Below, one piece after another: positions 32,824 to 62,454 of a stretch of DNA of 64,000 nucleotides (within the stretch, counting starts at the first letter, position 1; each line of letters starts with the position of its first letter). Under the pieces are notes generated by a model. That model did no database searches. It saw nothing but the letters and a program-made list of their open reading frames with translations, and was not told where the DNA came from. The translations under genes were made by a program, and so were the position numbers. Origin of the DNA: a virus; the IMG/VR virus record IMGVR_UViG_3300021405_000010, positions 13,712-77,711 of that record; one strand, 5' to 3'.

Positions 32824-32826
32824 AAA

Positions 32827-44400: not shown

Positions 44401-46530
44401 CACGTCCCCTTCGACAAAATGCTCGCCCTTGATGTAGCCATCGGCCTGTTTTTTGACCCTGGGGTCATCCGGCGAGAGCCCTGCGGCGTGCGCTTTTAAA
44501 GCCTGCGGCAACGTCATGCCTGCGAAGGCATCGGGCCCCTGCGGGTTCGGGTCGCCATGGGTGCTGCCTGCCGGGCGGCCCGTGAATTCGGTTGGCTCGG
44601 GCTGTGCCTTGGGCCTGGGAGGCGGCTGATCCTTGGGCGGTGGCGCTGGCTTGGGTGGTGCCTGGGCGGCTTGAGGCTGCCGGGTCGGTGCCTGCTGGGA
44701 AGGCGTAACCGTAACCGGAACCTTCGCGCTGGGCGCGGGAGGAGGTGGCGCTTGCTGAGCGGGTGGCCCTGCAAGCTGCGGCTGGGGGCGTCCTGGTGCC
44801 GCCGGAGGGGCTTTAGCGCCCGGGGTGATCTTGGGATATTTCCCGGGCATCAGTTGCTTCGCGGAGACGGGCGTAAAGGGAACCTTGGCCAGCTGGATGG
44901 TTTGACCGCTTGGCGCTGGCGGTGCCGTCGTTTGGAGCGGCCCAAGGCCCTTGCCGGGCGCTACATTCTGACTGCTTTGAGCGAAATTGACGGCTTCTTG
45001 ACGGGTAAAGCCCCGCTTCATCATCGCCGCGACCAGGGGATTTTCCGGCTCTGGGGCCGCGCCCTCTTGCGGCTGCCGCTGGCCGCCGCCGCGCAATACA
45101 GAGGCGAGCGCACCTCCGACTAAACCACTAAGATCTGCTCCTCCGCCTGATGGCGCTGGAGGGCCTTCGTTTGAGATGTGACCTCCGCCGCCGCCGGAGA
45201 TTGGCGGGGGTGGTGTTGGCGGAGGAGCTGCGGAGCCGCCGCTTCCCGTGGGTATTGAGAATAGCGGCTGGCCTGCCAGTGCTCCTCCCGGGGATGGGGA
45301 TACTGGTGTTGTCGGGCCGCCGCCTTTCGGTGCTCCGCCTGACTGGCCACCGCCGCCGCTAGAAACAAGGTCCTTGCCGCTGCCTCCGGCGGCAACCTTT
45401 TGGGCACCGGCAATATATTGCCCTGCCTCATTAGGACGCCTGATTGAGCCGAAGGTTTCCCCCATGTTGGCTACGCTGCCTTTGTTAGCTAAAAAATGTT
45501 CAACGGACCTGACGAAGGCATCCGCCGAGGCTTGTGGATTAAATTGATCGCTGCCGTTGGTATAGGCCGTTTGACCTTGCCCAAATTGGAAAAGACCCGC
45601 TGAACCTCCAGGATCGGCGGCGTTATAGGATCTGGTATTAAGATCAGATTCCTGTTTGGCAACGGCTAGGCCAAAGGCAGCCCATTCGGCGGCGGATCCG
45701 GTTTTTATCCCCCACCTTGCGCCATCGGGAGGCACATAGTTAACAAGGGGCGAATGAGAAAACTTGCCCAGAAGATAGCTGTACAAGGCTACGGGATCGA
45801 CGGCATTGTTCTTTCCGGCCTGAAGCGTATTTACTGGCGCTGGCGGCTTCTGTGGTTGCGCGGGTTGCGGGGAGGGTTGAAGCGCGGCTGACTTGGGCGC
45901 TGGCGTCTTTCCAGTCACCGTTGTCGGCTGCTGGCCATTAACGATGGCTTGAGCTTCGCCCGGGCTTTTGCCTTGGGTGATCAGAGCGTTGACCTGAGTC
46001 TGTGGATCCGGTTGATCCTCGGCGATCGTCGGGTAAGTGGTGGGCTGCGGCTGGGGTGGTGCCTGTGGCTGCTGGAACTGAGATGGTAGTTGCGATTGCG
46101 GCGGCTGCTCTTTGATTACCGGATCTGGAGGCTGCCACTGAGATTGGGTTGCAGGCTGCTCTTTGATCAATGGATCTGGCGGCGTCCATCCCTTTGCAGT
46201 GTCGGCCTTGGCGGCGGGTTCTTTAATTAAAGGGTCTGGCGGTTTCCATCCTTGTCCGTTCTGCGAGGGAGCCGGATCAACGATCTGTCCTGATCCTACC
46301 CGTTGTTGGGGGTTTTCTTGGAGGGCGGCAGTCTGGGCAGGAGTTAGCTGGGGTCCAGCCGTGGAGGCTTCGGGAGCGGCGGCTGCCGGAGCGATGAATC
46401 CCTGCTTGGGATCCAGTCCTACGTCTTGAGCGTTTTCCGGTGTTAAGACGTTCGGGAGACCAGCGTATTGACCAGCCTGCTGCAAAGCTGCACCAATCTG
46501 TTCCTTCGTAGGAGGGGCAGCGGCGGCCAT
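41461..46530 (-). CDS. Giant internal virion/ejection (polyvalent) protein with lysozyme/SLT-like and C-terminal HhH-glycosylase-like (DUF7178-type) domains
   Basis: AKQES...GLFQF; WY...LGATS...KTPNFAGNL...TIDVWAAR...LQAILW; start revised to MAAAAPP. Confidence 0.75.
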   Translation of the reverse strand: MAAAAPPTKEQIGAALQQAGQYAGLPNVLTPENAQDVGLDPKQGFIAPAAAAPEASTAGPQLTPAQTAALQENPQQRVGSGQIVDPAPSQNGQGWKPPDPLIKEPAAKADTAKGWTPPDPLIKEQPATQSQWQPPDPVIKEQPPQSQLPSQFQQPQAPPQPQPTTYPTIAEDQPDPQTQVNALITQGKSPGEAQAIVNGQQPTTVTGKTPAPKSAALQPSPQPAQPQKPPAPVNTLQAGKNNAVDPVALYSYLLGKFSHSPLVNYVPPDGARWGIKTGSAAEWAAFGLAVAKQESDLNTRSYNAADPGGSAGLFQFGQGQTAYTNGSDQFNPQASADAFVRSVEHFLANKGSVANMGETFGSIRRPNEAGQYIAGAQKVAAGGSGKDLVSSGGGGQSGGAPKGGGPTTPVSPSPGGALAGQPLFSIPTGSGGSAAPPPTPPPPISGGGGGHISNEGPPAPSGGGADLSGLVGGALASVLRGGGQRQPQEGAAPEPENPLVAAMMKRGFTRQEAVNFAQSSQNVAPGKGLGPLQTTAPPAPSGQTIQLAKVPFTPVSAKQLMPGKYPKITPGAKAPPAAPGRPQPQLAGPPAQQAPPPPAPSAKVPVTVTPSQQAPTRQPQAAQAPPKPAPPPKDQPPPRPKAQPEPTEFTGRPAGSTHGDPNPQGPDAFAGMTLPQALKAHAAGLSPDDPRVKKQADGYIKGEHFVEGDVLHNDLLQGLPHGRQGRQRQLLGQAETAIADKSPMHISYISAPKEAAKFPTRDTRKIQYDEHSPEARLMGTTEGQLVGHSMIPLSVGIKLPGKKGESHDSYIQGISTNILANNFQHTNDKLAAMGRKTPYQKLGAKFYNDLEGYYHNLLAGHTATGRGYVTGTAEHPNEPDREHVPYKLSRKEADFIGTVINNTAAFAKHGDAKAIRELARINGSLITEKGETNRMRHDIEEHEPGWRERVLEPSIRSFKTGLIHEIHPGEEHMPETIRPGKEFQELTKSIARTSERGRPDIPIAASLHHTFLDNKTINEIERDFSEHRITELEARGRLKDLGEDPGDYRFIGGSGGLITPYEDDPESLTPEEHTQMRDNLRKQWVGGKLNVDDYRKKAAEVPLPSKPSKPAAATPAPQPAAEPESEPDTPETPVAAPTPVPKAPKPKPVPKAPPEPVVKPEVAPEEPPAAPPGPDEPLPTVVKKPKAAKPAPAPEPEAEEKLTKPAGAADKAWMKDPKNEAERQSYLEKRVAASIGRQNAHPSAIPLKVQRNEAGGVQHDPGLNPVWEKTDYDVANLPFLQKKKKALGQLEGADKHEDTLGEDEHKHLNQTERRRLSAMRKASAVKTMGDKIHESYQAIKDQPDIAAGKGWYSRMRDKMAKVFGAGEEGKASEDHELFAQLLGATSAKTPVRDNFIQALDAFEQHKAGKFDRHVEKYKEAYSAMQDGGYEALNQKMREQGILKEGEEAPKTDAAAMARWIDHHDIIPKKQNGAKYNSNSEQVLKVLAGKWLDEVGAPKTPNFAGNLTGRTLAATIDVWAARHLHRLGHEHAGEKKGWRPQSAAEPGVNSLDFAFSQDAMKHAADKIGINPDDLQAILWYAEKHHWEKQGWTGGQGAEKGSFDETWDKAFPTEGKAMTSKELQQHYQDEKARDDKLDALRTTLAKKRTGGESEEKIDKYLKRYADEFLGKHGLSREHLEAPAAPGLEEAA

Positions 46531-46531
46531 T

Positions 46532-47149
46532 TTACAACCCCCAATCCTCCAGCATTCGCTCCACCGCTTCCAAGAGACCTTCTTCGTCCTTGTTCTGGGC
46601 CGCACGCAATTTGGTCATGGCTTGAGACCAGCGTTTCGTGCGTTCGTCCTCTTCAGGCACTTCGATTATAGGCATCTCGATTTCCTTTGGTTTTGGCGAC
46701 TTGGGAGTTCTGGCCAGCTTGCGTAAATCCTTGACGTACTTTTTACCTTGATGTGAAGTGAATTTGCCCGTGACTGGACTTAAGTCCTTCTCCGACAGGA
46801 TGGGTTTGTCTATTCCTGTGGACGTTTTCTGCAGCTCTTTGTGGATTTCGAGCATTTTAAGTTGCTCGTAAACAGCGTTTACGCTTCGACTCAGGCGCTG
46901 CTCGCAATACTCTTTGAAGGTCTCGGCGTAAACGAGGTACAGCTTGTCGTCGCGGATCTCTCTAAGCGCCTCGGCGGCCTTGAAGAAGTTCTGATTGATC
47001 TGGCTTTCCAGTTCTTCCAGCCGATTCCTTGGTTGAGACTTGCTTACACCGTAATCGCCAAATAGATTCTTTTTGGATATCAACATGGCCCCATCGTAGG
47101 AAAACCTGCGGTGGGGCTCAATCGTTTTCAGGGTGGTCGTCATTGGCAA
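46532..47149 (-). CDS. Putative DNA-binding protein (moron), paralog of 5228..6112
   Basis: ALREIRDDKLY...TFKEYCEQRL. Confidence 0.65.
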   Translation of the reverse strand: MPMTTTLKTIEPHRRFSYDGAMLISKKNLFGDYGVSKSQPRNRLEELESQINQNFFKAAEALREIRDDKLYLVYAETFKEYCEQRLSRSVNAVYEQLKMLEIHKELQKTSTGIDKPILSEKDLSPVTGKFTSHQGKKYVKDLRKLARTPKSPKPKEIEMPIIEVPEEDERTKRWSQAMTKLRAAQNKDEEGLLEAVERMLEDWGL

Positions 47150-47337
47150 AACAGGAGATAAGACAGCAGGATCACGAGAAGAAGAACGATGACCGTCACG
47201 AGAATTGCGATCTGTTGTTGTTCTTCAGTTCTTCTCTGGGTGTTCTCTCTGGCGAGTTGAGCCGGTGTCATTCGCAGGAGACGGTTGGTTTCGTCCTGCT
47301 TGTCCACGATGGCCCACAAGATGAGGAAGGTGATCAT
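47140..47337 (-). CDS. Small membrane protein (moron)
   Basis: C-terminal TM; promoter TTTATA-17-TATGCT 6 nt upstream. Confidence 0.6.
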   Translation of the reverse strand: MITFLILWAIVDKQDETNRLLRMTPAQLARENTQRRTEEQQQIAILVTVIVLLLVILLSYLLFCQ

Positions 47338-47375
47338 ACGTTGAGCATACGGACGATTTCTCAATTTATAAAGTA

Positions 47376-49124
47376 TTACTTCTGCGGCTTTTGATGGAGT
47401 CCCCCGTTTTGGTCACGGTAGTAAGCGCCGGGCCCTAACGCATCATATCCAGCTTGGTCGGTAATCACTCTTTCCGGTGTCGGAGAGGCGCTCGCTGGGG
47501 CCGGGGTCGGAGTCGGAGTCGGGGTCGGAGTCGGAGTCGCGCCGGAGGTCGCTGGAAGTTGTCTTCGCATTTGCTCCAGCTGCTCATTCATTTGCGCTAT
47601 CCTAGCGTTGGCGTCTGAGACGCTCGTAAAGTTTGAACGCTGCAAGTTGTGATCTTTGTAATCATTGCGCGGATCAGGAAGCTGCTGCCCGTTATCCAAT
47701 CTCGACATGTTCGCTGCATGCCGGGGATCAACGCGCTGCCACTGCTCCTGTGCTCCGTTAACCAAGTTTTTGTAGCGAGCGTCAACGGATTTCTGCAAGC
47801 TGCTCAGAGCCTTTAATCTGGTTCCTGCATCCTGCCCCGAAAAGGCGTCCGAAAGGACATTGGATGACGGTATATTTGCTAACTCTAGATTGAGCGCCGA
47901 TCCGTGGATGTTGGGAGTTTCCTGCCCTCCGCCTTGGCCGGGATCTAAGATTGCTAGTGCCGGATTAGACTTCAGTAATTTCTGTGCATGGTCAACTTCT
48001 TGGTCCAAGGCTTTGATGGCCGCAGCGGTGTCTCTATCCATTCCGCCTGCCTCACCCAGAATTGCACCTGTACTACTTCCAACTCGCTGCAGAGCCCCCT
48101 GCTCATTCCAAGGCCTATGTGATTCTAACGATACCGCTGCATTCTCTGCTGCGGCCCTCATTCTATCCGTTGTGCTTAAGTTTGAGTACCCAGCCTTATC
48201 CAATGTTTGGTTGAGGTCCGCAATCCGCTGAAGGCTATTGTGTAACTCCTCCGATGTATCAAGGGTTAGGTTGGTGCCCTGATCTATAGGACTCCTAGCC
48301 ATGTTGTTATTGTACCAAGCCTGCTTCGCCCATGGTTTCAACTGCTCATTGGACATGTGAGCAATCTCATCTCGCGATGGTCCCTGGCCAGTTTGGGTCC
48401 AGTAGTCTGAGACATATTGCCGCATCTGGGATTCTGGCAGCTCATAGGTGTCGTACCCGGTCGAACCCAAATACCAGCGTTGCTGTTTAAAGTAGTCTCC
48501 GGCCTTTGGGGGCAGCACCGTGTAAACGCGCCCGTAGCTGGGCGAAGTGACATCATCGTTGCGGTAATAAGTGTACGGGCCTGCAGTGCCGGGCACTATC
48601 TGATCGCCCTTATAAGGGCCGGTAGGCTTCGGCATCGATTTGGCCTGGGTCTGGACCGCATCTTGATCCGCTGGAGCAACCGTGGTGTTAGAAGGTAGTG
48701 GTGCCGGTGGCTGGGCTGGCTGTCCCCCGGGTGCGGTTTGAGCAGTGAGCTGATCTGGGGTTAAGCCGCCTTTGGATGCGACGTTAGTATAAGCCGAAAG
48801 CGGAACCCCGTTGACATCCGTTATCCCTGGAGCCGCTGGTGGGCCTGCTGGCGCTGGAATGCCTTGTGGAGCGCCTGCGCCCGTGCCGGAGGGCATCGCG
48901 CCCGGCGCTGGCGGTGGGCCGCCCTGGGCGATCTGGGGTGCGGTTTGATCCGGCGGTGCCGCGACAGGCTGCGGGGCTCCTGCCCCAGTGCCGGATGGCA
49001 TGCCTCCGCTCAGCTGATCGCTTTTACTTAAAACAGCGGAGGTGTTCTGGGCCGCCACCATAGGGCCAGCTCCCTTCTGGATCATCTGGGAGATAGGAAC
49101 GGTGTTAATCCCTCCGCCCTTCAT
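47376..49124 (-). CDS. Putative internal virion/ejection protein
   Basis: Pro/Gly-rich N-terminus, helical C-terminus; position. Confidence 0.6.
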   Translation of the reverse strand: MKGGGINTVPISQMIQKGAGPMVAAQNTSAVLSKSDQLSGGMPSGTGAGAPQPVAAPPDQTAPQIAQGGPPPAPGAMPSGTGAGAPQGIPAPAGPPAAPGITDVNGVPLSAYTNVASKGGLTPDQLTAQTAPGGQPAQPPAPLPSNTTVAPADQDAVQTQAKSMPKPTGPYKGDQIVPGTAGPYTYYRNDDVTSPSYGRVYTVLPPKAGDYFKQQRWYLGSTGYDTYELPESQMRQYVSDYWTQTGQGPSRDEIAHMSNEQLKPWAKQAWYNNNMARSPIDQGTNLTLDTSEELHNSLQRIADLNQTLDKAGYSNLSTTDRMRAAAENAAVSLESHRPWNEQGALQRVGSSTGAILGEAGGMDRDTAAAIKALDQEVDHAQKLLKSNPALAILDPGQGGGQETPNIHGSALNLELANIPSSNVLSDAFSGQDAGTRLKALSSLQKSVDARYKNLVNGAQEQWQRVDPRHAANMSRLDNGQQLPDPRNDYKDHNLQRSNFTSVSDANARIAQMNEQLEQMRRQLPATSGATPTPTPTPTPTPAPASASPTPERVITDQAGYDALGPGAYYRDQNGGLHQKPQK

Positions 49125-50108: not shown

Positions 50109-51692
50109 TTAGCTTTGGTAAGGGTTGTAGCCGTACTGCGCCGTGAGCATTGGGTTCTGCTTCTTCTTCTGCTGGTCCACGTCGTCCTGGGTAAATTGGG
50201 CAGCGGGTGCGGACGGGGCGCTGGGGGCGTGAAATTCCTGCGGCTCCGTCTTCCAGCTTCCGATCGATTTGGCATAGGTATTCATGGCGGACTGGAGCCC
50301 GGAGAAGAGGCCGCTCGCAACGCCTCCAACCCCGGCGGCTGCACTTGCTCCTCCTACACCAGCGCCGGTTGCGCCTGCCGTGGATTGCTGGCCGGTATAC
50401 TGCCAGTCGGGGTCGGGATCGCTCGGGACGTCGTAAGCCGGAGCGACAGACGGAGTCTGAGCTGGCCAGCCGCCAGCCGGTGTGGCGCTCGATGGGCTGC
50501 CGCCATACATCGCCTGGAGCTGCTGCGCGCTGGGCCCGGTATAGCCTCCTGGGGCCGCTGGGGCCTCGCTGGATGGCTGCTGGCTCGTGCCTTCGCCCGT
50601 GCCTGTGTTCTGCAGCGATTGGGCCGCCGCCGAGGCCACCGCCAGCCGCTTTCTGCGGACTTCCGGAGCTTCGTCACTGGAGTCATTCTCCGGCACAAAG
50701 CCGCCTTCCTGCATCCTGATTGGCGTCTGGCCGCCAAACATCTGTGCGGCCTGTTGTTTGGGGATCACGTATTCGCCGGGAGTTAAGAGGGCTGGAACCG
50801 TGTCCTGGTTCCCGCGCCCGGGCACTAGGCCGCCAGCGGCCATCGTCTTAACCCCTGCGGCGTTTGGCTGAATGGTGCTTGGCGGCTGGTTAACCCCGGC
50901 GGTGTACTGTCCGATGGTCGATGCCAATTGGCTGTGGAAGTCGGCAATCTGGGTGTGAGTCGCGGTATTTGGGTCGCCGCCGTAATGGGCGAAGAGAGCC
51001 TTGCCAGCCTCCGCCAGGGCGTTGGTATGGGCCGCTACGTCAATTCCCGGAGCGGCTGGCGCGGTAGCAAATGGCGTGGCCGGACGGGCCACCGAAGGCG
51101 CGTTGGCAGGCGTCACCGGGGTCGGCGTACCACCAGCTGTCGGCGGCGGCGTAGCAAAAGGTGAAGCAGAGCTGGCTACTCCTCCAAATACGCTGGGAAC
51201 GTTTGGGGTTGGACCAGTGGGAACCTCCGAGGCGCTGACCGGAGAAGGCACCTTACTGACTCCGCCTTTGGCGCTATTGATCTGGCCCGGGGTGGGATTA
51301 TAGACGGGGAAAGCGCCCTGGGCTCCGCTAAAACCGGCTGCGCCTAATGCCTGCGCCCCTAAGTTGGTCGCGGCGTTTATCGGATCCTGGCTCACCCCGC
51401 CCGGAGTCGAGGAAGGAGGTTGGCCAGCCTGACTGCCGCTTTGGCCGAGACCTCCCACAGCTTGCATTAACTGCAGCTGCTGGATCGTGTTACTCAGGTC
51501 GCGACCCGCAGGCTGGCCGCCGGTCGTCATTCCGTAGCTGGTTGTTGTCGGCGCGCTGCCGCCGGTCATGGGAGTGGCGGCAAAGGCGGCGGCCAGCTGG
51601 GCCGTGCTTAATCCCAGCGAACTGGCTAAGGCCTGACCCGTCTCCTGGTCATAGCCGTACTGCTGTAAGGGGTTACCGCTGTCAGTTGCCAT
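50109..51692 (-). CDS. Putative internal virion protein with tape-measure-type GGxV...DTVPALLTPGEYV motif
   Basis: AAGGLVPGRGNQDTVPALLTPGEYVIP; start revised to MATDSGN. Confidence 0.65.
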   Translation of the reverse strand: MATDSGNPLQQYGYDQETGQALASSLGLSTAQLAAAFAATPMTGGSAPTTTSYGMTTGGQPAGRDLSNTIQQLQLMQAVGGLGQSGSQAGQPPSSTPGGVSQDPINAATNLGAQALGAAGFSGAQGAFPVYNPTPGQINSAKGGVSKVPSPVSASEVPTGPTPNVPSVFGGVASSASPFATPPPTAGGTPTPVTPANAPSVARPATPFATAPAAPGIDVAAHTNALAEAGKALFAHYGGDPNTATHTQIADFHSQLASTIGQYTAGVNQPPSTIQPNAAGVKTMAAGGLVPGRGNQDTVPALLTPGEYVIPKQQAAQMFGGQTPIRMQEGGFVPENDSSDEAPEVRRKRLAVASAAAQSLQNTGTGEGTSQQPSSEAPAAPGGYTGPSAQQLQAMYGGSPSSATPAGGWPAQTPSVAPAYDVPSDPDPDWQYTGQQSTAGATGAGVGGASAAAGVGGVASGLFSGLQSAMNTYAKSIGSWKTEPQEFHAPSAPSAPAAQFTQDDVDQQKKKQNPMLTAQYGYNPYQS

Positions 51693-53043
51693 CTTGCTCC
51701 TTCCCGGCTGTGATGCGCGCAATGGCCACTCCCAGCTCGGTTAAATTGCTAAACCCTGTCTCCAGGAGGTATTCTTCATTGTTGCACTTGAGTTCCAGGC
51801 CCTCTTTTTCAAAGTGTTGGGCCAGAAGCGCGAAAGCCGGGGTTTCCAGGTTCACTCCCAGCCAGTCGTCCACCCCGCTCTTCTTGATCCGTTTTTCGGA
51901 CTCCACGGCCTGGACGGCCCAGTAATCAAAAGCCTGATGAGTCCGCAGATAGTCGATGATCGCCTGGGTGTTCCTGCGGTACATCTTGGCCACCGTGTTG
52001 CTGTGCTGGAGCTTGCGGATCCGGGCGTTCTGGATCATCAGCCGGTCGTACTCGTGGCGGCTCCAGCCGTTGGCCGAAAGGAAATTGGCGAAGTCTTCAG
52101 CAGTTTCGATGCCGCTACGTTGCTGGAAGCGAACATTCTCGCGCTCAATCTCGGGAATCGAAACGCTCACACAGAGCTGGTCGCAGAGCATCAAGGCCAG
52201 CTCCTGATTGGCCGAATCCCAGCAGATCCGCTCCCATTCCGGATTGTGAAGGAGGACGTAGGCGTCGATGTGCTGCTGGGGGATTTCAAAGCCGTTAATG
52301 GGTATGCGCCGATCCCGCTCATAAAGGGCCGTAAAGAAGCGCGAAAGGTTCTCTGGAGTAGGCTTTCGCAATGGCGCTGACTCGTACATCAAGTGGTCCT
52401 GCAGAGCCGTAACGGCGTCCATCTGTTTCTGCGGAATGCAGGGCATCGGGATATCGGGACAGATTCCACCCCAGGTTTTCTCGCAGTCTTTCTGGGTCCG
52501 CTCCATGTAGAAGACCTTGCGCATCACTTCGAGGAATTCCCGCGCCTGCCTGCCCAGCTCCGGGTCGCCGGAGTACGCCTCGTAGTGCTCGACCCCGGCC
52601 CGGATATCGGCCAAAGGAACGCTCTGAGGGTAATAGAGCGGTCCATCGGGCCCTTCCCGGCTGGCGTAGTTTAAGGCCACTTCACTGTCGTCCTCGGTCA
52701 CTGAATCCCTGTACCAGTGATAGATCTTGCCAATCCCGATCATCCCAAGGAAGTCCAGCTCTGCCGCGCGTAAAGCCCCCATGGAAGCCGCGCCATAGAC
52801 GGCTTTAACGCCCGGGTACTGGAGGGCGTAGACCAGCTCCTTGTGCCAGACAGAGAGGTTCTGGCGGAACTCGCCATCGATCAGAATGATCCGGTCAGGC
52901 GAGAGATTAACCACGTCGGTCACGATGTCGCCCTGCTTGGCCGGTGGCCGGAAAATCCCCGCTGGCAGAATCTCGCGCGCCTTACTAAGGGGAAGTGAGG
53001 GCCCCAGGTAAACCAGCACCTTTTCATTTACAGGGTCTTCCAT
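51682..53043 (-). CDS. tfuA: TfuA-like protein with C-terminal extension
   Basis: YLGPSL, PPAKQGD, IDGEF...VWHKE, GAASMGALRAAEL..GMIGIG, DDSEVAL. Confidence 0.93.
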   Translation of the reverse strand: MEDPVNEKVLVYLGPSLPLSKAREILPAGIFRPPAKQGDIVTDVVNLSPDRIILIDGEFRQNLSVWHKELVYALQYPGVKAVYGAASMGALRAAELDFLGMIGIGKIYHWYRDSVTEDDSEVALNYASREGPDGPLYYPQSVPLADIRAGVEHYEAYSGDPELGRQAREFLEVMRKVFYMERTQKDCEKTWGGICPDIPMPCIPQKQMDAVTALQDHLMYESAPLRKPTPENLSRFFTALYERDRRIPINGFEIPQQHIDAYVLLHNPEWERICWDSANQELALMLCDQLCVSVSIPEIERENVRFQQRSGIETAEDFANFLSANGWSRHEYDRLMIQNARIRKLQHSNTVAKMYRRNTQAIIDYLRTHQAFDYWAVQAVESEKRIKKSGVDDWLGVNLETPAFALLAQHFEKEGLELKCNNEEYLLETGFSNLTELGVAIARITAGKEQDGN

Positions 53044-54278
53044 TCTTCCCCCTTTTCTTCATCCGGTTGCGCTTTCGCTTGCTCGGCCAGCTCATCAAAC
53101 CGCCGCCGGGCGTAGCTCAAACAGCGTAAACCGGGGGTCCAGTGATCGAATCTGAACGGCTCGCACTGGGGGCTGATCACCCGGACCACATGGACCTTGC
53201 CGTCCAGAAAAGAGCCCATTTCTTTGACGTAGACGTCACTGACCCCGAATTGCCGGATCAGCTTGAGCAGGTAGCGCAATTCGGTCCTGACATCCGGGAA
53301 ATCCAGGACCCGGTATTCGGAGAGGGGGCTACCCATCGGCAGCTCCTGGAACATCTCGTGGAGCTTGTGCTGATCCATTCTCTTCATGAGAAGGAATTGC
53401 CGTCGAAATAAGTCGTCGCGCGCGCCGGAGATGTAGCAGCACCGGGCCTGGGCGGCCTCGGTGATGGCGCGGAGCGCGGCTATTTCGGCGTTCAGGTGGC
53501 TCCCATAACCTCCAAAGGTTCCGGCGCATGTCCCGCCCAGATCCAGGATGATGGCCGAGAAAGTGGGAATCTTGTAGTCGTTAGTGATATCAAAAAGGTG
53601 CAGCTTCAGGTTGGCGCTCTCGATCTTGCGGATACAGGATTCGAGCCTGTCTGAGACGGCGACCAGGGGCGAGCGGGTGAGCAGGAGGCCGCTATCCAGG
53701 AGGAACTGGTTTAAGGTCCAGGCATCGCGCTCAAGCACCTCGTAGAGCCCGGAAAGAATCGCGTCCTCAATGGAGCCGCCGGTCGCCACCCCGTTAGAGC
53801 CCATCTGGACGTACATCAGGGACTGCTGCGGGATCCGGGTGACCAGCCAGACCAGATCGGAGGGGATTAGTAGTTTTCTCCCGTTTTGGATGTTGGTGAC
53901 CCATTCCCAGGCCAGCGGAGTCAGGTCGTTCACCACACTGGAGCGGGTGGGAAAACATTCATCCAGTGGGAGGTGGGTATCTGGGGCCAGATCAATGGCG
54001 CGCGCGATCTGCCACTCGCCGTAAGGGTGTTCAGCCACCTCAAATTCAATCGCTTCCAGGATCGCCCCGGCTCGGGAGAAATCGCGCTCTAGCCCTTTCC
54101 CGGCGTGGATAGACACGGTTTCCGACAAAGCCCGGACACAGGTGTAAACAGGCAGCCATGCGTTGTCCAGGCCGGTCAGCTCCGCCACTCTGCTGATCCC
54201 GAATTGCTCCAGCAGCTCTTTACGTGTCAAAGAGTTGATGGCGTCGGCGGTCGCTTGGCGTAGTTCTTTGCGGGTCAT
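53028..54278 (-). CDS. ycaO: YcaO-family ATP-dependent enzyme (TfuA-associated, thioamide-forming type)
   Basis: GISRVAELTGLD, GKG, EAIE, SNGVATG, EVLERDA, GYGSH...RAITEAAQAR...ISGARDD; start revised to MTRKEL (ATGA overlap). Confidence 0.93.
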   Translation of the reverse strand: MTRKELRQATADAINSLTRKELLEQFGISRVAELTGLDNAWLPVYTCVRALSETVSIHAGKGLERDFSRAGAILEAIEFEVAEHPYGEWQIARAIDLAPDTHLPLDECFPTRSSVVNDLTPLAWEWVTNIQNGRKLLIPSDLVWLVTRIPQQSLMYVQMGSNGVATGGSIEDAILSGLYEVLERDAWTLNQFLLDSGLLLTRSPLVAVSDRLESCIRKIESANLKLHLFDITNDYKIPTFSAIILDLGGTCAGTFGGYGSHLNAEIAALRAITEAAQARCCYISGARDDLFRRQFLLMKRMDQHKLHEMFQELPMGSPLSEYRVLDFPDVRTELRYLLKLIRQFGVSDVYVKEMGSFLDGKVHVVRVISPQCEPFRFDHWTPGLRCLSYARRRFDELAEQAKAQPDEEKGEEWKTL

Positions 54279-55750
54279 GCCGTCAGAAGAGTGTTCAGGG
54301 TGAAAAGAGACCGTTCCCTGGTCCCAATTAGCCGTAACATCGCCGCCCGAATCAAGGCTTTCAGGGCTGGTCTGGCAGGGAGTGTCGCAGCGAAACTCTC
54401 GCCGTGCCGTAGGTAAGTACTTCGCAAAGAAGTGGGCGCGAAATTCAGCATCCATATCCGGAAAGCTTTCCATTGGTCGTCGGCGGTGCCCAGGCACTCG
54501 CGCGCCACCCAGCAACTGATCGCTGCCGCAGCGGCTGCCGCCGAGGCCACCGCACCCGCAGCTCCCACCCCAGCTGACATCATCCCGGCGGACTGCTGGG
54601 CGGCCAGCTGCTGCTGCTGGGACTGCATCTGGGCGCTGTTAAGGGCGATGCCATTCATGGTGGCATAGTTACTCTGCTGGAATGAATTATAGGCTCCGGC
54701 CTGCCCCAGCTCGGATTGCGCCATATTGGTGCCGCCAAGGCCAAAGGGTCTTTTCGCAAACATCGTGTTGGCGTTCTGCAAGCCGCCCAAGAGATTCATG
54801 GCCTGCCCCTGTTGGAGGCCGCCATAGATCTGGGCCATCTGGGCGGTATCCATCCCGTACTGTTCCTGCGCTTGCTGGGCGGTGTTTGAGAGCCCTCCAG
54901 CCGTCGCTGCGGTGTTGGCACCTAAACCGTAGGTCTGCGCGCCTCCGGCCAATTGTGCGCCACCCAGGCCTAATGTCTGGCCACCGGCTCCGATCGTGGA
55001 AGCGCCCAGGCCCTGGAGCTGGCCGCCCTGACCGGCAATCGAGGCGGCTTGACCGATGTCGCTCATGGCCTCCCCGCGCATCGCCTGACCGTACTGGAGC
55101 GTCGAGAGGCCCAGCTGGCGAGCGGCGGCGGATTGCCCCGCCATGCCCTGGCCCAGAGATGCGGCACCAAGGCTACCGGCAGCACTGGAGAGTCCGGCGC
55201 GCATCATCTGTTGCTGGGTCTGAGGATCGATCGGCTCGCCCAGGAGCTGCTGGCCTACGGCATACGGAGTAGCCGCCATGCCGGTCACCTGTTGGCCGGT
55301 GCGGTTGATCTGGCCGCCGATCTTATTCTGCTGCTGCCCCATCCCGATCAGGGGCTGGGCCAGCCCGGCCTGACTCGCGCCCAGGTTATAGATCGGCTGG
55401 GTAGCCTGGGCTGCGGTGGCCGCCGCACTCTGGATGTTGCCGATATCGGAGGTAGTACCTGCGGCGTTGCGGCCAGTGATGGTGTTGGCCAGCTGGCTCA
55501 TGATATCAGACTGGCCGGTCTGGCCTTGCGCCACCTGACCCACTTGCTGCCCCAGGTTGGCCTGATACTGCTGGTAAGCCTGCTGCAAGGCCGGATACCG
55601 GTTGGCGAAATCCTGATCGCTGAGAGCGTAGCTCTGGATGTCGCCCCCGATCGCCATCTGCTGCAGGCCCATGGCGGAGCTGTAGTCAAAGTTCGGGGGT
55701 GCTCCTTGAGCTTTAAACGATGGTGTGCCGCCTCCGCCGCCGCCGCCCAT
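54275..55750 (-). CDS. Gly/Ala/Gln-rich ejection/DNA-pilot-like protein with C-terminal CWVAR (CFI-box-CTERM-like) domain
   Basis: MGGGGGGG N-terminus; ...AAAAAAISCWVARECLG...W..FR.W.L...Y..HGE..A. Confidence 0.7.
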   Translation of the reverse strand: MGGGGGGGTPSFKAQGAPPNFDYSSAMGLQQMAIGGDIQSYALSDQDFANRYPALQQAYQQYQANLGQQVGQVAQGQTGQSDIMSQLANTITGRNAAGTTSDIGNIQSAAATAAQATQPIYNLGASQAGLAQPLIGMGQQQNKIGGQINRTGQQVTGMAATPYAVGQQLLGEPIDPQTQQQMMRAGLSSAAGSLGAASLGQGMAGQSAAARQLGLSTLQYGQAMRGEAMSDIGQAASIAGQGGQLQGLGASTIGAGGQTLGLGGAQLAGGAQTYGLGANTAATAGGLSNTAQQAQEQYGMDTAQMAQIYGGLQQGQAMNLLGGLQNANTMFAKRPFGLGGTNMAQSELGQAGAYNSFQQSNYATMNGIALNSAQMQSQQQQLAAQQSAGMMSAGVGAAGAVASAAAAAAAISCWVARECLGTADDQWKAFRIWMLNFAPTSLRSTYLRHGESFAATLPARPALKALIRAAMLRLIGTRERSLFTLNTLLTA

Positions 55751-55767: not shown

Positions 55768-56166
55768 CTAATAAGCGTCTTCATCGTAAATAAACGCTGT
55801 CTCGGTTGCTCGTTTCAGCCTGACGTGTTTAAGGACTCGCTTGCCGCCGGTCAGGGCCCGATCGCACAGCATGAAAATGGGATTGCCGCAGTGCCTTTTA
55901 ATCTCGGTGATTAAACTGCGGGTGATCTTTAAGTACTCGCGGATGTTCATCAGCTCGGGGTGCAGCGTCGTATAAATGCAGGTCTGGGGAATCGCCTGGA
56001 AGTATCCCCGCAAGGTGCCCTGATAGAACACGAGATAGATCGGATAGAACCTCTCCAGGGGGCCGCCTAAATCCGCCGCGATCGCCTCTACGTTGTAACG
56101 TTGCAGCTCCTTCTCGTTCTTGACGGTAACGAGCGAGATGTCCGATTTATCAGGTAAGTCTTGCAT
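55768..56166 (-). CDS. Putative assembly protein (positional analogue of podovirus T7 gp13/P22 gp14)
   Basis: Between tail and ejection genes; start revised to MQDLPDK. Confidence 0.5.
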   Translation of the reverse strand: MQDLPDKSDISLVTVKNEKELQRYNVEAIAADLGGPLERFYPIYLVFYQGTLRGYFQAIPQTCIYTTLHPELMNIREYLKITRSLITEIKRHCGNPIFMLCDRALTGGKRVLKHVRLKRATETAFIYDEDAY

Positions 56167-57442
56167 CGGCGGTAACGAAAGCGGCGAGACCGTCGCTCTT
56201 GGCGCTTGCTGGGGTGGTAATAGCAGCTCCAAAAGCAACGCCTTTTTGGGAAGCGGCTGGGGTTCCAAAAGCGGTGACATCTACACCAGTGGTCAGATTG
56301 CGAATTGTATTAATCGTGAAGGTGCTGGCCGAATAGAGGGTGACCGTGGGCACCTTAGCCATCCGGCGCGGGAACAGCATTGAGCCCATGGCAAATCCAG
56401 CCTGATGAGCATAGAGATTCAGCCCCCATGTACCGGCATTAGTCGTTTGATAGTTGAAGTTGGTGTAGTAGTAGCGGATCGCATCGTGCAGATCGGCCTC
56501 GAAAGAGTTGATCGTGGCGTAGCCGCACTGGGGTGAGGCTTCCAGCCGCACCGCCGTAATCTTCATCTGGTTGTTAGTGACAGAGCACATGTTGCTCTGG
56601 CCCGTCCCAGCCCCGAAGAACCCGGCATTCCATTTGGCCGTATTAGTGGTGGTCCACTGGCTCCCGCAGGCCATCGTCACTCCGACATACATCCCGGTCA
56701 CCCCCTCGCCATAGCTCCAGGTGCCGCTCGTTGGAATGGCCGGGATATTCTGGATCTTGATCCGGGTCCACGTATTAGCCGTGGGCATCGTGAAGGTGGC
56801 GCAATAGGACTCGTCCCGGGCTCCAGAAGCCAGATAGGCCGAATAGGTGCCCGGCTGATTAACCCAGCAAAGGAAAGACAGGCTTAAAATCTCGCCTTGA
56901 ATCGGAGCCAAGTCAGAGCCCTCGATCAGGTGCTCATGGGAGTAGAGGTCGGTCGTTCCCAGAGTCGGGGCCGTGGTGCCTACCGTGTATTTGATAGCCG
57001 CCGGGCAAGTGTCGTAATCAGCCCCGGCGAAGGGTCCTACGTCCGCCGCGATCGCCAAGACTCCGGCAGTAGTCATCCGGCACAGGCACATGTCGTAGGT
57101 CTTATTGACCCCGGCCACCAGCGCCGGGGCGGCCCCGGTCTGCTGGACCTGACAAGAGCCGTTCTTAACGTAGTTCCTGGCCGCGCGCGCCGTCAGGCTC
57201 TGAGGCAGGTACTGGCCGGTGACCGGATCCCAGAAGTACCAGACCCCGCCCATGGCGATCGGGCCCTGATCGGTCGAGGGAAGAGTAGAACCAGGGGGCA
57301 GGATCAGGCCCGTCAGGAACTGGCCTTCCACCGTGGCGGACATCAGGATGCAGGCCTGCTGGAAGGTTTCGTCCATGTCGCCGTCGAACCCCTCGGGGAA
57401 CGGCGCGATACTGATCTTTAACGGTAAGGATTGGTCTGCCAT
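56150..57442 (-). CDS. Tail fibre/spike protein, C-terminal domain paralogous to 30308 and 32827 fibres
   Basis: NYVKNGSCQVQQ...HLIEG...RYY...TADARL. Confidence 0.75.
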   Translation of the reverse strand: MADQSLPLKISIAPFPEGFDGDMDETFQQACILMSATVEGQFLTGLILPPGSTLPSTDQGPIAMGGVWYFWDPVTGQYLPQSLTARAARNYVKNGSCQVQQTGAAPALVAGVNKTYDMCLCRMTTAGVLAIAADVGPFAGADYDTCPAAIKYTVGTTAPTLGTTDLYSHEHLIEGSDLAPIQGEILSLSFLCWVNQPGTYSAYLASGARDESYCATFTMPTANTWTRIKIQNIPAIPTSGTWSYGEGVTGMYVGVTMACGSQWTTTNTAKWNAGFFGAGTGQSNMCSVTNNQMKITAVRLEASPQCGYATINSFEADLHDAIRYYYTNFNYQTTNAGTWGLNLYAHQAGFAMGSMLFPRRMAKVPTVTLYSASTFTINTIRNLTTGVDVTAFGTPAASQKGVAFGAAITTPASAKSDGLAAFVTADARLT

Positions 57443-57444
57443 TT

Positions 57445-57618
57445 TTACCAGTGATGGTTAGGACGGGAGAGGTTGAGCTGCTGGGGGCCGAAAGGGTTTA
57501 AGATAAAGACCGGGGAATCCATCAAAGAGTCGTAGAGAAGCTCTTTACTCCGGGAGGGGTAAATGGACGGCATCCCGGTCTGCAGATCCAGAACGACCGA
57601 AGTGATGGTGGTGCTCAT
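57445..57618 (-). CDS. Small structural-module protein (57 aa)
   Basis: Manual translation MSTTITSVVLDLQTGMPSIYPSR...; ATGA-coupled. Confidence 0.55.
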   Translation of the reverse strand: MSTTITSVVLDLQTGMPSIYPSRSKELLYDSLMDSPVFILNPFGPQQLNLSRPNHHW

Positions 57619-59441
57619 GCCGTGGCCTCCAGGACGATGTGCGGGGTGGTGGATTCATCGACCGGGCAAACCCCCTGGGGGCTCTGGAGCTGCCGGTCGT
57701 AGAAGAATTTGAGCTGGCGGATGCCTAAGCGGCCCTGCCACTGAACCATCAACTGGAACGCCTTATCGACTCCATCCATCCGCTGGATCTCGGTGCAGGC
57801 CGCGCCGTCCTCGCTTTCATGGATGATGAATTCGCTGGTCCGCATATGGCGCACCTGTTTGCGGTAGTTCTCAAACTGGGTGGTCTGGTTTTTGGCGACG
57901 TAGTAGAGCTTGGTCGCGATGGAAGGATTGCCCCACGGGCCCACATCGGCGCGCAACGTCGTCGAAAAAAGCGGCTGGTAGTTCCCGGCCAGCCCCGCGA
58001 CGTAGACCTGGATCGGGACCGTCCCCTTCAGGTTGACGATCATGAATTCCGCGAAAACGAACCGGTAATAGTCGTCGGTCTGGAGCAGGAAAGCCCGGGT
58101 CTCAAAGGAGCAGTGGATGTTAGCCTCCACGTCGCTCACCTGATTGGGCATGTAGTTTTCCCACAGGTGAATATTGGCCTGGAGGGGCAGGTCGGTTTCG
58201 GGCTGGGGCGAAGGCGAGTCGCCTTCATTGACGGCCAGAAAACCGGAGCTGTAACTCAGCTCGTAGTTGTGCTGGGTGCCGTTGATGATCGGGCTGGTGT
58301 ACTGGACCGGATAAGTGCCGCTCCAGATCCCAACCCAGCACATTCCTTGCTGGTTATTCAGCTTTTCCGCGACTCCCCCGTCCATGATCCAGGTGTGCCG
58401 GTTATTCAGGCAGCTGGCCGGGACAGAGACCATCAGGACGTTCTCCCAGACCCCCAGGGCGGCTCCGGTGACGTCGGGGGCCATCAGGTGCTTAGAACGC
58501 TGCATCTCGCCGTCTGCGGTCAAAATGACGGTGGTCAGGTTCTGGGTCAGGGCCCGGTCGTAGGAAATAATCCCCCGGGCGGTCAGGATCCAGAGCATCC
58601 CGTGCAGATAGACCATCCCCCAGGGGGCGATAAAGCCGATCTCCAGGTTGACGTCGGCCTGGAAATTAGGAGTGGTCGACCACTGGGTCCGGTCCTGGAT
58701 AAAGCTCTGAAGGGAGTGCAGGCTCGACTGGGTGCCCACCAGGATTCCCTGGACGGGCGAGGGGACCAAATTAACCACCGGCCTCGGGAACCGGAACCCG
58801 CTGGCTTCCGCGAGGTACGTGTTCTCGGTGAAGCTCTGGGGGTACAAGAGATCGGAAGCGAAGATCAGGTTATCGACCACCACCCAGAGCCGGTTATCCT
58901 GCCAGAGCATGGCGGTGCCGATCGGCAACGGGCTCGCCGGATTGCCGGTCACATAAGAAAGATCGGCTTTACCGCTCGAAAAATCGGTGGTGTCCCAGTA
59001 GCAGGGGGTGCTGGAGCCATCCTGCATTAGGACGATGTTCTTGGGCTGGGGCAAGAGAACGATGGCATTGTCCGGGCCGTAAACGATCGCCTGTTCGGCG
59101 TTGCAGAAGTAGATCCGAGGCGCATCGGCCAGGAAGCTGACGTTTGCCATCTGGGTCCAGCTCTTAAAGGGGTAGGGAGCCCAGTAGACTTTGCCGTCGA
59201 TGGCGATCAGCTTGTAGTTGCGGTCATCCATCGTCCGCACCCAGAAGGCCCCTTGGGCGTTATGGCCGCAGAAACTGGTTACCCGGCGCTTGGCTGGCCG
59301 GGTCTGGACGACGCCGCCACGGTTCACCACGTTAACGCCCCAGGCGTAGGTGCCAGCCAACAGATCAGTCGGGTAAAGGAGGCTATCCACCCCGCCCACA
59401 TACTGGCCGTCGATCACGAATTGAAACTGCTGGGCGCTCAT
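57615..59441 (-). CDS. Tail tubular/nozzle protein (P22 gp10/T7 gp12-like, beta-propeller)
   Basis: GGVDS...NVVNRGGVVQTRP N-terminus, RLWV...IFASD; size and position; start revised. Confidence 0.65.
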   Translation of the reverse strand: MSAQQFQFVIDGQYVGGVDSLLYPTDLLAGTYAWGVNVVNRGGVVQTRPAKRRVTSFCGHNAQGAFWVRTMDDRNYKLIAIDGKVYWAPYPFKSWTQMANVSFLADAPRIYFCNAEQAIVYGPDNAIVLLPQPKNIVLMQDGSSTPCYWDTTDFSSGKADLSYVTGNPASPLPIGTAMLWQDNRLWVVVDNLIFASDLLYPQSFTENTYLAEASGFRFPRPVVNLVPSPVQGILVGTQSSLHSLQSFIQDRTQWSTTPNFQADVNLEIGFIAPWGMVYLHGMLWILTARGIISYDRALTQNLTTVILTADGEMQRSKHLMAPDVTGAALGVWENVLMVSVPASCLNNRHTWIMDGGVAEKLNNQQGMCWVGIWSGTYPVQYTSPIINGTQHNYELSYSSGFLAVNEGDSPSPQPETDLPLQANIHLWENYMPNQVSDVEANIHCSFETRAFLLQTDDYYRFVFAEFMIVNLKGTVPIQVYVAGLAGNYQPLFSTTLRADVGPWGNPSIATKLYYVAKNQTTQFENYRKQVRHMRTSEFIIHESEDGAACTEIQRMDGVDKAFQLMVQWQGRLGIRQLKFFYDRQLQSPQGVCPVDESTTPHIVLEATA

Positions 59442-61300
59442 GGCATCGAGACAAAGGAAGAGCCCCAGGTGTCGGGATCGACCTGGATGCCCAGTTGTTC
59501 CTGGGGGTGGGTGGCGCGCCACTCCTTGTTGAGGAGATCCTTGGCGGCCATGAGGAGGACGTTGGCGGCGTTTGGATCGGTCATCGCGGTCTGGATGGCC
59601 CTCATCCCGTTTAGCATCGCGGAGCGGCTCCGCAGATGAATCGGGTCGGTCAGGCTGGTGATCTTAACCAGCCGCTTCTTGTACCGGAGCCGGATCGTGA
59701 CCGCCTGCTGGCCGATCTTGATTATCCGGAACATCGGCTCGGGGATATTCGGCCAGAAGGTCCCCAGGGCCTGCACATACTGGGTTCCATCGGTCGCGTA
59801 GAGCTGCAAGAAGCTCTGGGGAGAGCCGATGACGATCCGGTCAATCCGCTTAAAAGGGAGCTGCTGATCACTGATATCAAAGCTGCCTTGTTCACAAGTT
59901 ACTATGGCTCCAGGGTTTCCGTCTTTCCCGTAGATCGGTAAATCGTTCTGATCGATGCCGTAAGCCCTGACCGGCGTACCGTTATCCGTTACAGAAACCG
60001 GCGCGGCTACCAAGTAGGAAGGGCTCTGGAGTGGGAAAGCGCACGGCATCTCCCCTACTTCTTCCCAACCTCCGGAGGGTCTGTTACTACCCACCTGATC
60101 GGCGTAATCGTTATCCTGGCCCAGTCCATTCATGTGGAATTCGTGCCACTGATTCCGGAAGGTCCCGCGCGACTTATTCACATTGATGGCCAGGACCTGA
60201 TCGACATACTGGGGTAAGGTCACGTAGAAGCTGTCAAAGGTCTGGATATCGACGTAGCCAATCAGGGGATCCCAGTTGGAAAGATTGGCGAGCAATTCAA
60301 TCGCCTCGGTCATCCGGTCAAAGACCTTGGCTTGTCCGATCGGGCCAAAGATGTCACAGGCCGAATCGTAGAGGTCCCCGGCGATAACGGCATCGCGGGT
60401 ATTGATCGAGAGGTTTAAGGTCGGGCTCGTTTCAGCAGCTTGACTAACACGCTGGAAGAGATTTCTCGCGGCTTGGTCCTCATCCAAGAACCGGAGGGCG
60501 TTCTGCTCGGCGGTGGCTCCGTCGTCCCAGTTGAGGGTGTCGTAGGCCTTAATGGCGATGCAGCTGGTGATGACGGCTTGCCGGTTTGAGAGCGGGATGA
60601 TGTCGGTCGGTTGCGTGAGCTTGTAGGTCCGTCTTCGGGCGAGGATTTTGGCCGAGACCGCCGTTTGCGAGAGTTTGATCCATTCAAATTGCGGATAGAG
60701 CACCGCCGGGCCCCAGGTGGCAACGAGGGAGCTTTCGATGACGAAGGGCGCTGCGTAGAGCTGGAGGCTTCCTTTGGTGACTGGTTTACTGACTTCCAAT
60801 AACCCATAAATCTTTGGACCGGCGTAACCCACCAGCGCCTCAATCCAGGTAGTGGACCCGTCCTGGTTGATCGTGTTGAGCAAGACCACCGTCGAGGTGT
60901 CATTGGCATCGGTGGACATGATGATGAACTGGTTGCCAGAGAGCGGCCAGGGCTTCTGCAAGGGTTTCCAGCCCTTATCCTGCCACTGCCAGCCAGCTTC
61001 GGGATCCACCGTGCCGGGCCCGTTAAGACTGAACTCGAAGAACTGATTGCGAGAAAAGCTCGGCTGCTTGTTGAGATTAATCTTGATCGGCTTTTCGATG
61101 TGCGGCGGCAGGCAGATGTAATAGCCGTCAACGACCGGGATATCCACGTAGATAAGAAGCGGGTCCCAAAGGACGCCGGTCTTGGTGGGTTTATTAGCTA
61201 ATAGCTCCACCGCCCGGGTCAGGACGTCAAAAGTATAGTCCTCGTCACAGGTGCCTAAGACCCGTCCGACTTGGCTGATCACATCACTGACGACGATCAT
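59438..61300 (-). CDS. Head-tail adaptor-like protein with two internal homologous halves
   Basis: AVELLAN..WDPLLIYVDI vs AIELLAN..WDPLIGYVDI. Confidence 0.6.
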   Translation of the reverse strand: MIVVSDVISQVGRVLGTCDEDYTFDVLTRAVELLANKPTKTGVLWDPLLIYVDIPVVDGYYICLPPHIEKPIKINLNKQPSFSRNQFFEFSLNGPGTVDPEAGWQWQDKGWKPLQKPWPLSGNQFIIMSTDANDTSTVVLLNTINQDGSTTWIEALVGYAGPKIYGLLEVSKPVTKGSLQLYAAPFVIESSLVATWGPAVLYPQFEWIKLSQTAVSAKILARRRTYKLTQPTDIIPLSNRQAVITSCIAIKAYDTLNWDDGATAEQNALRFLDEDQAARNLFQRVSQAAETSPTLNLSINTRDAVIAGDLYDSACDIFGPIGQAKVFDRMTEAIELLANLSNWDPLIGYVDIQTFDSFYVTLPQYVDQVLAINVNKSRGTFRNQWHEFHMNGLGQDNDYADQVGSNRPSGGWEEVGEMPCAFPLQSPSYLVAAPVSVTDNGTPVRAYGIDQNDLPIYGKDGNPGAIVTCEQGSFDISDQQLPFKRIDRIVIGSPQSFLQLYATDGTQYVQALGTFWPNIPEPMFRIIKIGQQAVTIRLRYKKRLVKITSLTDPIHLRSRSAMLNGMRAIQTAMTDPNAANVLLMAAKDLLNKEWRATHPQEQLGIQVDPDTWGSSFVSMP

Positions 61301-62318: not shown

Positions 62319-62422
62319 AAAAATGAGGGACCGACACTCTAGGCGCTGGTTCTTGAATAGCGTCCTTTCTCTGTGGATTAGAATGTTGCCAGAGCATCGG
62401 CCCCTCCCGGTGGAAAGGTTTG

Positions 62423-62447
62423 GGAGGGCCCCTGTGAGGAGCCCTCC
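62423..62447 (-). terminator. Hairpin just downstream of capsid gene
   Basis: ggagggc/gccctcc stem. Confidence 0.5.
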
Positions 62448-62454
62448 ACTTCGA

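Follow-up and report, generated by a model that had tools for sequence, protein, structure and literature searches.

A YcaO–TfuA gene pair kept in a putative virion-gene operon of soil phages and its possible action on a phage protein

An intact ycaO–tfuA pair inside a phage operon

Few protein modifications are as rare as backbone thioamides, and a phage genome that carries ycaO and tfuA, genes of families linked to thioamide formation, raises the question of which protein this phage would modify. The two genes lie in a 64,000-nucleotide stretch of DNA (the window), which comprises bases 13712–77711 of the 77,711-bp IMG/VR virus record IMGVR_UViG_3300021405_000010. This record was assembled from a soil metagenome, and CheckV rates it complete. 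Among public sequencing runs, one DNA dataset, a soil metagenome that is probably the source sample, contains it, and no RNA dataset is listed. A preliminary description of the window, made from its letters without database searches, had proposed a phage thioamidation system embedded in a cluster of virion ejection proteins. The answer that we favor, with a confidence slightly short of an even chance, is that the phage thioamidates a protein of its own tail/internal-protein module, the likeliest being the 491-amino acid (aa) protein encoded directly upstream of ycaO.

Positions 50109–55750 of the window are filled by four minus-strand genes:

54275–55750, minus strand: 491-aa gene; Gly, Ala, and Gln together make up 47% of the protein
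53028–54278, minus strand: ycaO, 416 aa (Pfam PF02624)
51682–53043, minus strand: tfuA, 453 aa (Pfam PF07812)
50109–51692, minus strand: 527-aa gene, Gly/Ala/Pro-rich; Gly, Ala, and Gln together make up 38% of the protein

Both ycaO and tfuA were intact, as previously described, with open frames and full-length Pfam matches. The overlaps claimed at all three junctions were also found in the DNA: the 491-aa gene and ycaO overlap in an ATGA, ycaO and tfuA share 16 nt, with a ribosome site of the AAGGGGG type upstream, and tfuA and the 527-aa gene share 11 nt. The last of these holds for the most plausible start of the 527-aa gene, the ATG at 51692 behind a GGAAGGAG site; the open reading frame (ORF) listing carries this gene on to a TTG at 51722. 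ycaO and tfuA are translationally coupled to their neighbors, and a promoter scan of the minus strand from 49108 to the window end revealed no sigma-70-like site.

Catalytic features of YcaO and TfuA

The YcaO protein matched PF02624 over model positions 1–324 of 325 with an E-value of 6.8e-55 and a score of 187 bits (cut-off 25.7). Its motifs SNGVATG (residues 161–167), EVLERD (180–185), EAAQ (274–277), and ISGARDD (283–289), which the preliminary description had quoted, were all present. In 15 close relatives, E75, E78, N162, G163, E180, E183, R184, D185, E274, Q277, R279, and G285–D289 were invariant, and the equivalent acidic and Arg columns were invariant in 18 distant YcaOs with 33–45% mutual identity. 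Degenerate catalytic residues, which had been named as a sign against a working system, were not seen. The closest PDB sequence was that of the thioamide-forming M. jannaschii MJ1094 (6PE3/6PEU; E 1.7e-27), with which the acidic and Arg motif residues of the phage enzyme align; E. coli YcaO (4Q84) was a distant relative (E 8.9e-4). We take these conserved residues to be the published ATP/Mg-binding residues.

TfuA matched PF07812 over the entire model (positions 1–119 of 119; E 3e-29; 101.7 bits, cut-off 30). An AlphaFold model of its residues 1–220 matched TfuA of M. acetivorans (6XP8) in a Foldseek search with an E-value of 2.6e-11, a template modeling (TM) score of 0.76 (target), and 31% identity. 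The ratio of nonsynonymous to synonymous substitutions (dN/dS) of YcaO was ca. 0.10–0.15. When the pair was compared with two relatives, the proportion of nonsynonymous differences (pN) was 0.18–0.23 at saturated synonymous sites (pS, ca. 0.7–0.8), and this pN/pS pattern of ycaO and tfuA was comparable with that of another gene in the operon, the 635-aa gene. Both ycaO and tfuA are under purifying selection.

The best NCBIfam models were TIGR03266 for YcaO (169 bits; equivalog cut-off 365) and NF033432 for TfuA (134 bits; equivalog cut-off 235). The pair therefore falls outside the equivalogs that thioamidate the McrA glycine, yet it probably works like a member, and family membership points safely to thioamide formation as the predicted chemistry. 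It appears rather improbable to us that YcaO carries out another reaction (the formation of azolines or amidines, or some other ATP-dependent activation of the backbone) and that TfuA has a function unrelated to sulfur, such as binding the substrate. The scores below the thioamidation equivalog cut-offs would agree with such a reaction, the YcaO superfamily performs several reactions on one ATP-binding fold, and no function is known for the C-terminal domain of TfuA. In contrast, every TfuA-associated YcaO characterized so far makes thioamides to our knowledge, and neither an E1-like nor a dehydrogenase partner, as needed for azoles, was seen beside the pair.

Conservation of the gene order among phages

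A search of 5.8 billion proteins yielded more than 120 metagenomic protein clusters at 62–87% YcaO identity, many of them on contigs of 74–79 kb, and a related YcaO was found on 24 further contigs in IMG/VR, which come from many samples. The order conserved protein, YcaO, TfuA was observed in 20 of the 20 IMG/VR loci that could be read past ycaO. This order was kept from 87% down to ca. 33% YcaO identity, with a homolog of the 491-aa protein directly before ycaO in every relative examined. The nine closest loci were collinear with the window from the 391-aa gene to the gene of the giant protein. In a second tier of relatives, YcaO was 33–41% identical and the 620- and 635-aa genes were 30–44% identical to those of the window; TfuA of ca. 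440–470 aa, alignable over its full length, came after YcaO, and a member of the 491-aa family preceded YcaO.

Synteny across viral databases, which the preliminary description had asked for, was thus present, and the sporadic occurrence in unrelated contexts that it had feared was not seen. The overlapping genes and the order kept in 20 of 20 loci also agree with its view that the pair belongs to the operon rather than forming a moron. Since the record is a soil metagenome assembly, the locus might in principle be an assembly chimera or consist of decaying passengers; this idea retains practically no probability. The same arrangement on 24 other contigs rules out a chimera, which had been raised as a danger, and the related protein clusters, intact frames, and purifying selection speak against decay.

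Variation was limited to a few loci. L039 was the only readable locus with a short TfuA (188 aa; L039:3464–5159), and its upstream protein has a degenerate form of the C-terminal module described below, with CTAGRGVKG instead of CWVAR..YG. In L032, a distant relative, ycaO and tfuA are separated by a 400-bp gap that contains a 101-aa ORF (11229–11534, plus strand) with CxxC-type cysteine pairs. L021 and L031 are also gapped at this junction; the 101-aa ORF of L032 is not conserved in the window.

Two outgroup phages (L066 and L067) have homologs of the 391-, 620-, and 635-aa proteins (24–40% identity). YcaO was found nowhere in either of them, one being 96% complete, and no significant hhalign match was obtained between the 491-aa family and their syntenic proteins. 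In a YcaO tree, a quick FastTree analysis rooted at its midpoint and including many rows whose origin is unknown, 13 of the 14 viral YcaOs and 28 unlabeled metagenomic representatives formed one clade (local support 100%). The YcaO of phage L035 was placed in a small neighboring clade nearer to cellular sequences, and six named bacterial YcaOs formed a separate clade. This tree and the outgroups lacking YcaO suggest that the pair was acquired in one or two old events and has been retained since. That it persists in a virion-gene operon over deep divergence argues that the modification would be of importance to the particle or to the infection.

Among 50,697 GenBank phage records, no match was found to YcaO, to the DNA of the locus, or to the 391- and 635-aa genes, and full-text literature searches that paired YcaO or TfuA with phage or virus terms gave no paper on a phage YcaO–TfuA system. 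The earlier statement that no phage thioamidation system has been described is borne out by both searches. Phages are not mentioned in a 2021 mining survey of thioamidated clusters for peptides made on ribosomes and then modified post-translationally (RiPPs) (PMC8120280), and more YcaO protein substrates probably await discovery (PMC13063428, 2026). As a separate observation, a close YcaO (P0016) lies on a 315-kb contig, which may be a prophage and a clue to the host.

The long form of TfuA and related bacterial clusters

TfuA usually consists of ca. 200 aa, whereas the phage protein has 453 aa and a conserved second domain:

52489–53022, minus strand: TfuA N-terminal domain, residues 8–185 (PF07812)
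51685–52380, minus strand: TfuA C-terminal helical domain of ca. 230 aa, residues 222–453; conserved in phages and homologous to bacterial long TfuAs

In 21 phage sequences, residues 222–453 were as conserved as the catalytic part, and the domain could be aligned across both phage tiers, including phages at 31–35% identity. The AlphaFold model of the C-terminal half was of low confidence and gave no fold match with Foldseek. A match in a protein atlas built on a language model scored 0.76 and serves as a lead only. A protein search with the extension returned only the phage family among the best 120 matches, and a hidden Markov model (HMM) of the phage domain gave a single chance match, to an unrelated 610-aa protein, in 401 Pseudomonadota genomes. 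Short TfuAs beside the closest named bacterial YcaOs align only up to residue ca. 197.

TfuA was present in 16 of the 401 Pseudomonadota genomes, and several copies occur in open frames of 456–463 aa. In the three Pseudomonadota loci that we read (L096–L098), a YcaO of ca. 400 aa is directly followed by a TfuA of 440–448 aa. Comparison of the phage C-terminal domain with that of these bacterial long TfuAs by hhalign gave a probability of 96.4% and an E-value of 1.2e-9 over 206 columns; this homology ruled out that the extension is phage-specific. The YcaO of phage L035 was 36% identical to one partner YcaO of a bacterial long TfuA, and the window YcaO was 28–31% identical to these partners. 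The phage pair is thus a divergent member of a bacterial long-TfuA type. It shares with the bacterial clusters the order of YcaO and TfuA and a homologous C-terminal domain of TfuA, but the bacterial clusters are cellular, stand in RiPP-like or unknown contexts, and are uncharacterized. The homology of the long C-terminal domain makes the phage pair look more like the RiPP-like bacterial clusters than the methanogen type. The preliminary description had taken methanogen and thioamitide systems as its references. This stood insofar as the best-scoring curated families are McrA-thioamidation models, but the nearest named families also include the bacterial RiPP-like long-TfuA clusters.

L098 contains a 95-aa ThiS-like gene whose product ends in AIAGG (11865–12152, minus strand), a ThiF-rhodanese fusion gene (10733–11878, minus strand), genes for ABC transporters, and an ORF of 64 aa (17807–18001, minus strand) whose tail is rich in Cys and Ser. 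From these genes, L098 looks like an uncharacterized RiPP cluster that brings a sulfur relay of its own. In L096 and L097, YcaO and the long TfuA are followed by a 458–462-aa protein with an HEVGH motif. Directly after it, these two loci encode 191- and 281-aa proteins (L096:2755–3330, minus strand; L097:6391–7236, plus strand) that have the common core RFARIYGF...YDKAD.T.RMD and carry six pentapeptide repeats at their end, (GAKVS)x6 or (GMSAR)x6. The pentapeptide-repeat proteins may be substrates of protein size in which the core is repeated.

These clusters bear on the idea that the phage pair makes a small thioamidated peptide, a toxin or signal, cut from a low-complexity neighbor, for example from the repeats of the 491-aa protein or from its C-terminal tract. 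The C-terminal domain of TfuA is common to RiPP-like bacterial clusters with small-peptide products, L098 combines a ThiS-like gene, a ThiF-rhodanese fusion, ABC transporters, and a small Cys-rich ORF, the L096 and L097 pairs adjoin proteins with pentapeptide repeats, and the Gly/Ala/Gln repeats of the 491-aa family vary. Nevertheless, we consider this idea improbable. No protease, transporter, or immunity gene was found among the neighbors scanned, the genes overlap within the late operon, and the arrangement persists over a very deep divergence of phages, unlike typical accessory cargo. The overlaps leave no room for a separate small precursor gene. Scans with Pfam and PHROGs of ca. 30 larger genes, which did not cover every small ORF, detected no protease, transporter, or tailoring family; to this extent the reported lack of a RiPP transporter or protease was upheld.

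Candidate substrates and the proposed reaction

The reading preferred here, thioamidation of a phage protein of the tail/internal-protein module, has the 491-aa protein as its leading substrate candidate, presumed from its adjacency to ycaO. This protein sits at the position of the T7 internal virion protein B and has a dN/dS of ca. 0.14. It matched no family in Pfam, PHROGs, or NCBIfam. In an alignment of 18 family members, the region Y-x-LSD-x-DF-x-x-RYP at the N-terminus, the stretch A-R-N-L-G, and the motif R-x-[FY]-G-[LIVF]-x-G were shared. Three elements of the protein were considered in relation to YcaO–TfuA:

54731–54751, minus strand: R-P-F-G-L-G-G motif, residues 334–340 of the 491-aa protein; candidate modification site
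54515–54589, minus strand: Ala/Gly/Ser/Val-rich hydrophobic tract, residues 388–412; candidate modification site or putative membrane helix
54278–54514, minus strand: Cys-initiated C-terminal module CWVARECLG...W..FR.W..., residues 413–491; before ycaO in most relatives

Only four columns are invariant in the 18 members, and the glycine motif supplies two of them, G337 and G340; F331 and R334 are nearly invariant. The Ala/Gly/Ser/Val tract is present in 18 of 18 members and forms the very C-terminus in L031 and L034. The cores of thioamitides are small-residue tracts, and the Ala tract weakly resembles them. The glycine motif bears a similarly weak resemblance to the F-F-G-F context of the thioglycine in McrA (PMC5589413). 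A complex prediction for YcaO, TfuA, and residues 375–491 of the upstream protein, run with no controls, scored 0.28 with the mark at 0.32, which speaks neither for nor against this substrate.

The CWVAR module also occurs in gp25 of the Puniceispirillum phage HMO-2011 (L041:12001–12177; hhalign probability 99.4%, 78 columns), with the shared pattern CWVAR..YG....W..FR.W..AP. Its presence in HMO-2011 and its absence from L031, L034, and L036 indicate a separate, mobile domain, which appears to end virion-module proteins of podoviruses. Since it is present in a phage lacking YcaO and absent in three phages with YcaO, the module is unlikely to be a recognition element.

The 527-aa protein is a presumed second candidate. 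Only its residues 283–338 gave matches, to PHROG 35029 (2e-9) and a tape-measure family (2.9e-5). Its syntenic counterparts in the relatives keep the position but are very divergent in sequence.

Regarding the sulfur source, we found no match to ThiS, ThiF, or rhodanese at an E-value of 0.1 in the whole 77.7-kb genome, whereas nearly all control genomes gave matches. The reported lack of ThiS and ThiF thereby extends from the window to the full genome, and without ThiS, ThiF, and rhodanese of its own the phage must obtain sulfur from the host. In the reaction that we propose, an active YcaO and a long-form TfuA would be made together with the late virion proteins. YcaO would activate a backbone amide in an ATP-driven step, TfuA would supply sulfide from a sulfur carrier of the host, thiocarboxylated ThiS, and the product would be one or more backbone thioamides on a phage protein of the tail/internal-protein module. 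The likeliest site would be the invariant F-G-L-x-G motif or the Ala/Gly-rich hydrophobic tract of the 491-aa protein. Both the late timing of expression and a benefit for the virion are presumed; protease resistance, altered membrane insertion, and escape from defense sensors, which the preliminary description had put forward, would be conceivable benefits.

Thioamide-forming YcaOs act on whole proteins, only two of which are known as such substrates: McrA (PMC5589413) and E. coli uL16, for which the enzyme was assigned only in 2026 (PMC13063428). The methanogen McrA pair provides the best-scoring curated families and structures for the phage pair (TIGR03266, NF033432, 6PE3/6PEU, and 6XP8), and it resembles the phage pair in the ycaO–tfuA overlap and the same gene order; its substrate is a whole protein instead of a peptide with leader and core (PMC5589413), as is presumed for the phage. 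It differs from the phage pair by its short TfuA; the phage has no McrA, its pair is set in a phage operon, and its scores are far below the equivalog cut-offs. E. coli YcaO forms a thioamide on a folded protein outside a RiPP pathway, but it works without TfuA (PMC13063428) and has a 150-residue TPR domain that is absent from the phage enzyme. The RiPP clusters for thioviridamide and thiovarsolins likewise have an adjacent YcaO–TfuA pair (PMC8120280). Unlike in these clusters, the phage has no short leader precursor, and no protease, transporter, or tailoring enzymes were found among the neighbors scanned.

Several observations weigh against thioamidation of a phage virion protein. Scores below the McrA equivalog cut-offs imply a specificity different from that of the McrA system, and the kinship of the TfuA C-terminal domain with small-peptide clusters was noted above. 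The marine SAR116 phage HMO-2011 has the CWVAR module and no YcaO, and conversely L031, L034, and L036 have YcaO and lack the module. It is adjacency that designates the substrate. The virion label is firm for the tail-fiber genes, which are the only firm virion-structural markers on this strand. The upstream block of putative capsid and tube proteins matched no family in Pfam, PHROGs, or PDB profiles, and the 391-aa protein therein had no family or PDB-profile match and a pLDDT of 29 in its AlphaFold model.

Alternatively, the pair may modify a host protein, either late or after being packaged and injected, for take-over or counter-defense. We regard this as unlikely, though worth serious attention. 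By gene order, the pair sits among proteins that are possibly ejected into the cell, both known whole-protein substrates are cellular (McrA, PMC5589413; uL16, PMC13063428), and none of the features of the upstream protein is distributed exactly as the pair is. However, a tight and deep adjacency with one phage protein family is the usual pattern of an enzyme and its substrate, YcaO and TfuA bear no mark of virion components, and late co-expression would be an odd timing for take-over.

Returning to a phage-encoded substrate, a broader form of the proposal is that a large clade of uncultured soil phages thioamidates its own tail/ejection-module protein, which would be the first viral thioamide and a third kind of whole-protein YcaO substrate, and that the C-terminal domain of TfuA recruits the substrate. 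To this form we give real weight, though our doubt exceeds our belief. If true, thioamidation would extend to viruses, a new chemistry would be added to the small set of enzymes with which phages modify structural proteins of their own, and the uncharacterized long-TfuA domain would gain a functional handle. As the candidate substrate is encoded next door, a clean test is possible.

Surrounding genes and the virion-module context

The genes on both sides of the pair were also analyzed:

30308–37023, minus strand: three tail-fiber genes (Pfam Collagen and Phage Tail Collar; PHROG tail-fiber families down to E 3e-53)
41461–49124, minus strand: 582-, 205-, and 1714-aa genes, a presumed internal-protein block; low complexity, with no family for the block
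55768–56166, minus strand: small conserved gene, ca. 132 aa from an internal ATG; before the 491-aa gene and conserved in 14 loci
56150–63630, minus strand: 391-, 229-, 142-, 620-, 635-, and 430-aa genes; order kept in nine close loci

The 1714-aa protein (41461–46605, minus strand) has a C-terminal DUF7178 (E 1.8e-11), a lysozyme-like E-S...GLFQ stretch near residue 320 that is below the threshold (E 0.8), and long Pro/Ala/Gln-rich linkers. In the relatives, large proteins occupy the position corresponding to the 582-, 205-, and 1714-aa block. The small gene is placed among viral proteins by the protein atlas, where the clusters at ranks 23 and 27 have 47–49% GNAT members; it had nothing significant in Pfam or PDB profile searches. 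As a lead only, this gene could encode an acetyltransferase-like protein at the position of T7 gp13 (protein A).

Internal virion protein operons of podoviruses comprise a small non-structural acetyltransferase-like gene, protein B, and large fast-evolving proteins, the last of which is often muralytic (PMC4819975). The layout of the locus resembles that of the T7 gp13–gp16-type operon in having a small gene, a protein of moderate size, and large low-complexity proteins up to a giant one, downstream of tail genes (PMC4819975). The described internal virion protein operons of podoviruses contain no modification enzymes such as YcaO–TfuA. No window protein matched a named internal virion protein, nozzle, or acetyltransferase in Pfam, PHROGs, or PDB profiles. 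A virion tail and internal-protein module is the best reading of this context, and its basis is synteny rather than homology; the virion context of the pair can be fairly assumed. That the neighbors are ejection proteins is presumed from the gene order, which is what fits. The preliminary description had called the flanking genes Gly/Ala/Gln-rich and of the internal-virion type. The composition agrees with this, but the internal-virion or ejection label relies on gene order and composition, the sub-threshold lysozyme-like motif, and the atlas lead.

In the upstream block, the 620- and 635-aa genes are conserved down to 26–44% identity, and the 635-aa family had no significant match in PDB profiles. 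The presumed terminase and portal were not recognized by Pfam and PHROGs. The 391-aa protein (62455–63630, minus strand) is 93–97% identical among the relatives, its neighbors being only 60–75% identical, with pS saturated at 0.80; as a guess, it could be the capsid protein. The 229-aa protein (61629–62318, minus strand) weakly matched the fungal-type chitosanase family GH75 (E 1.5e-5; 25.8 bits against a cut-off of 27 bits).

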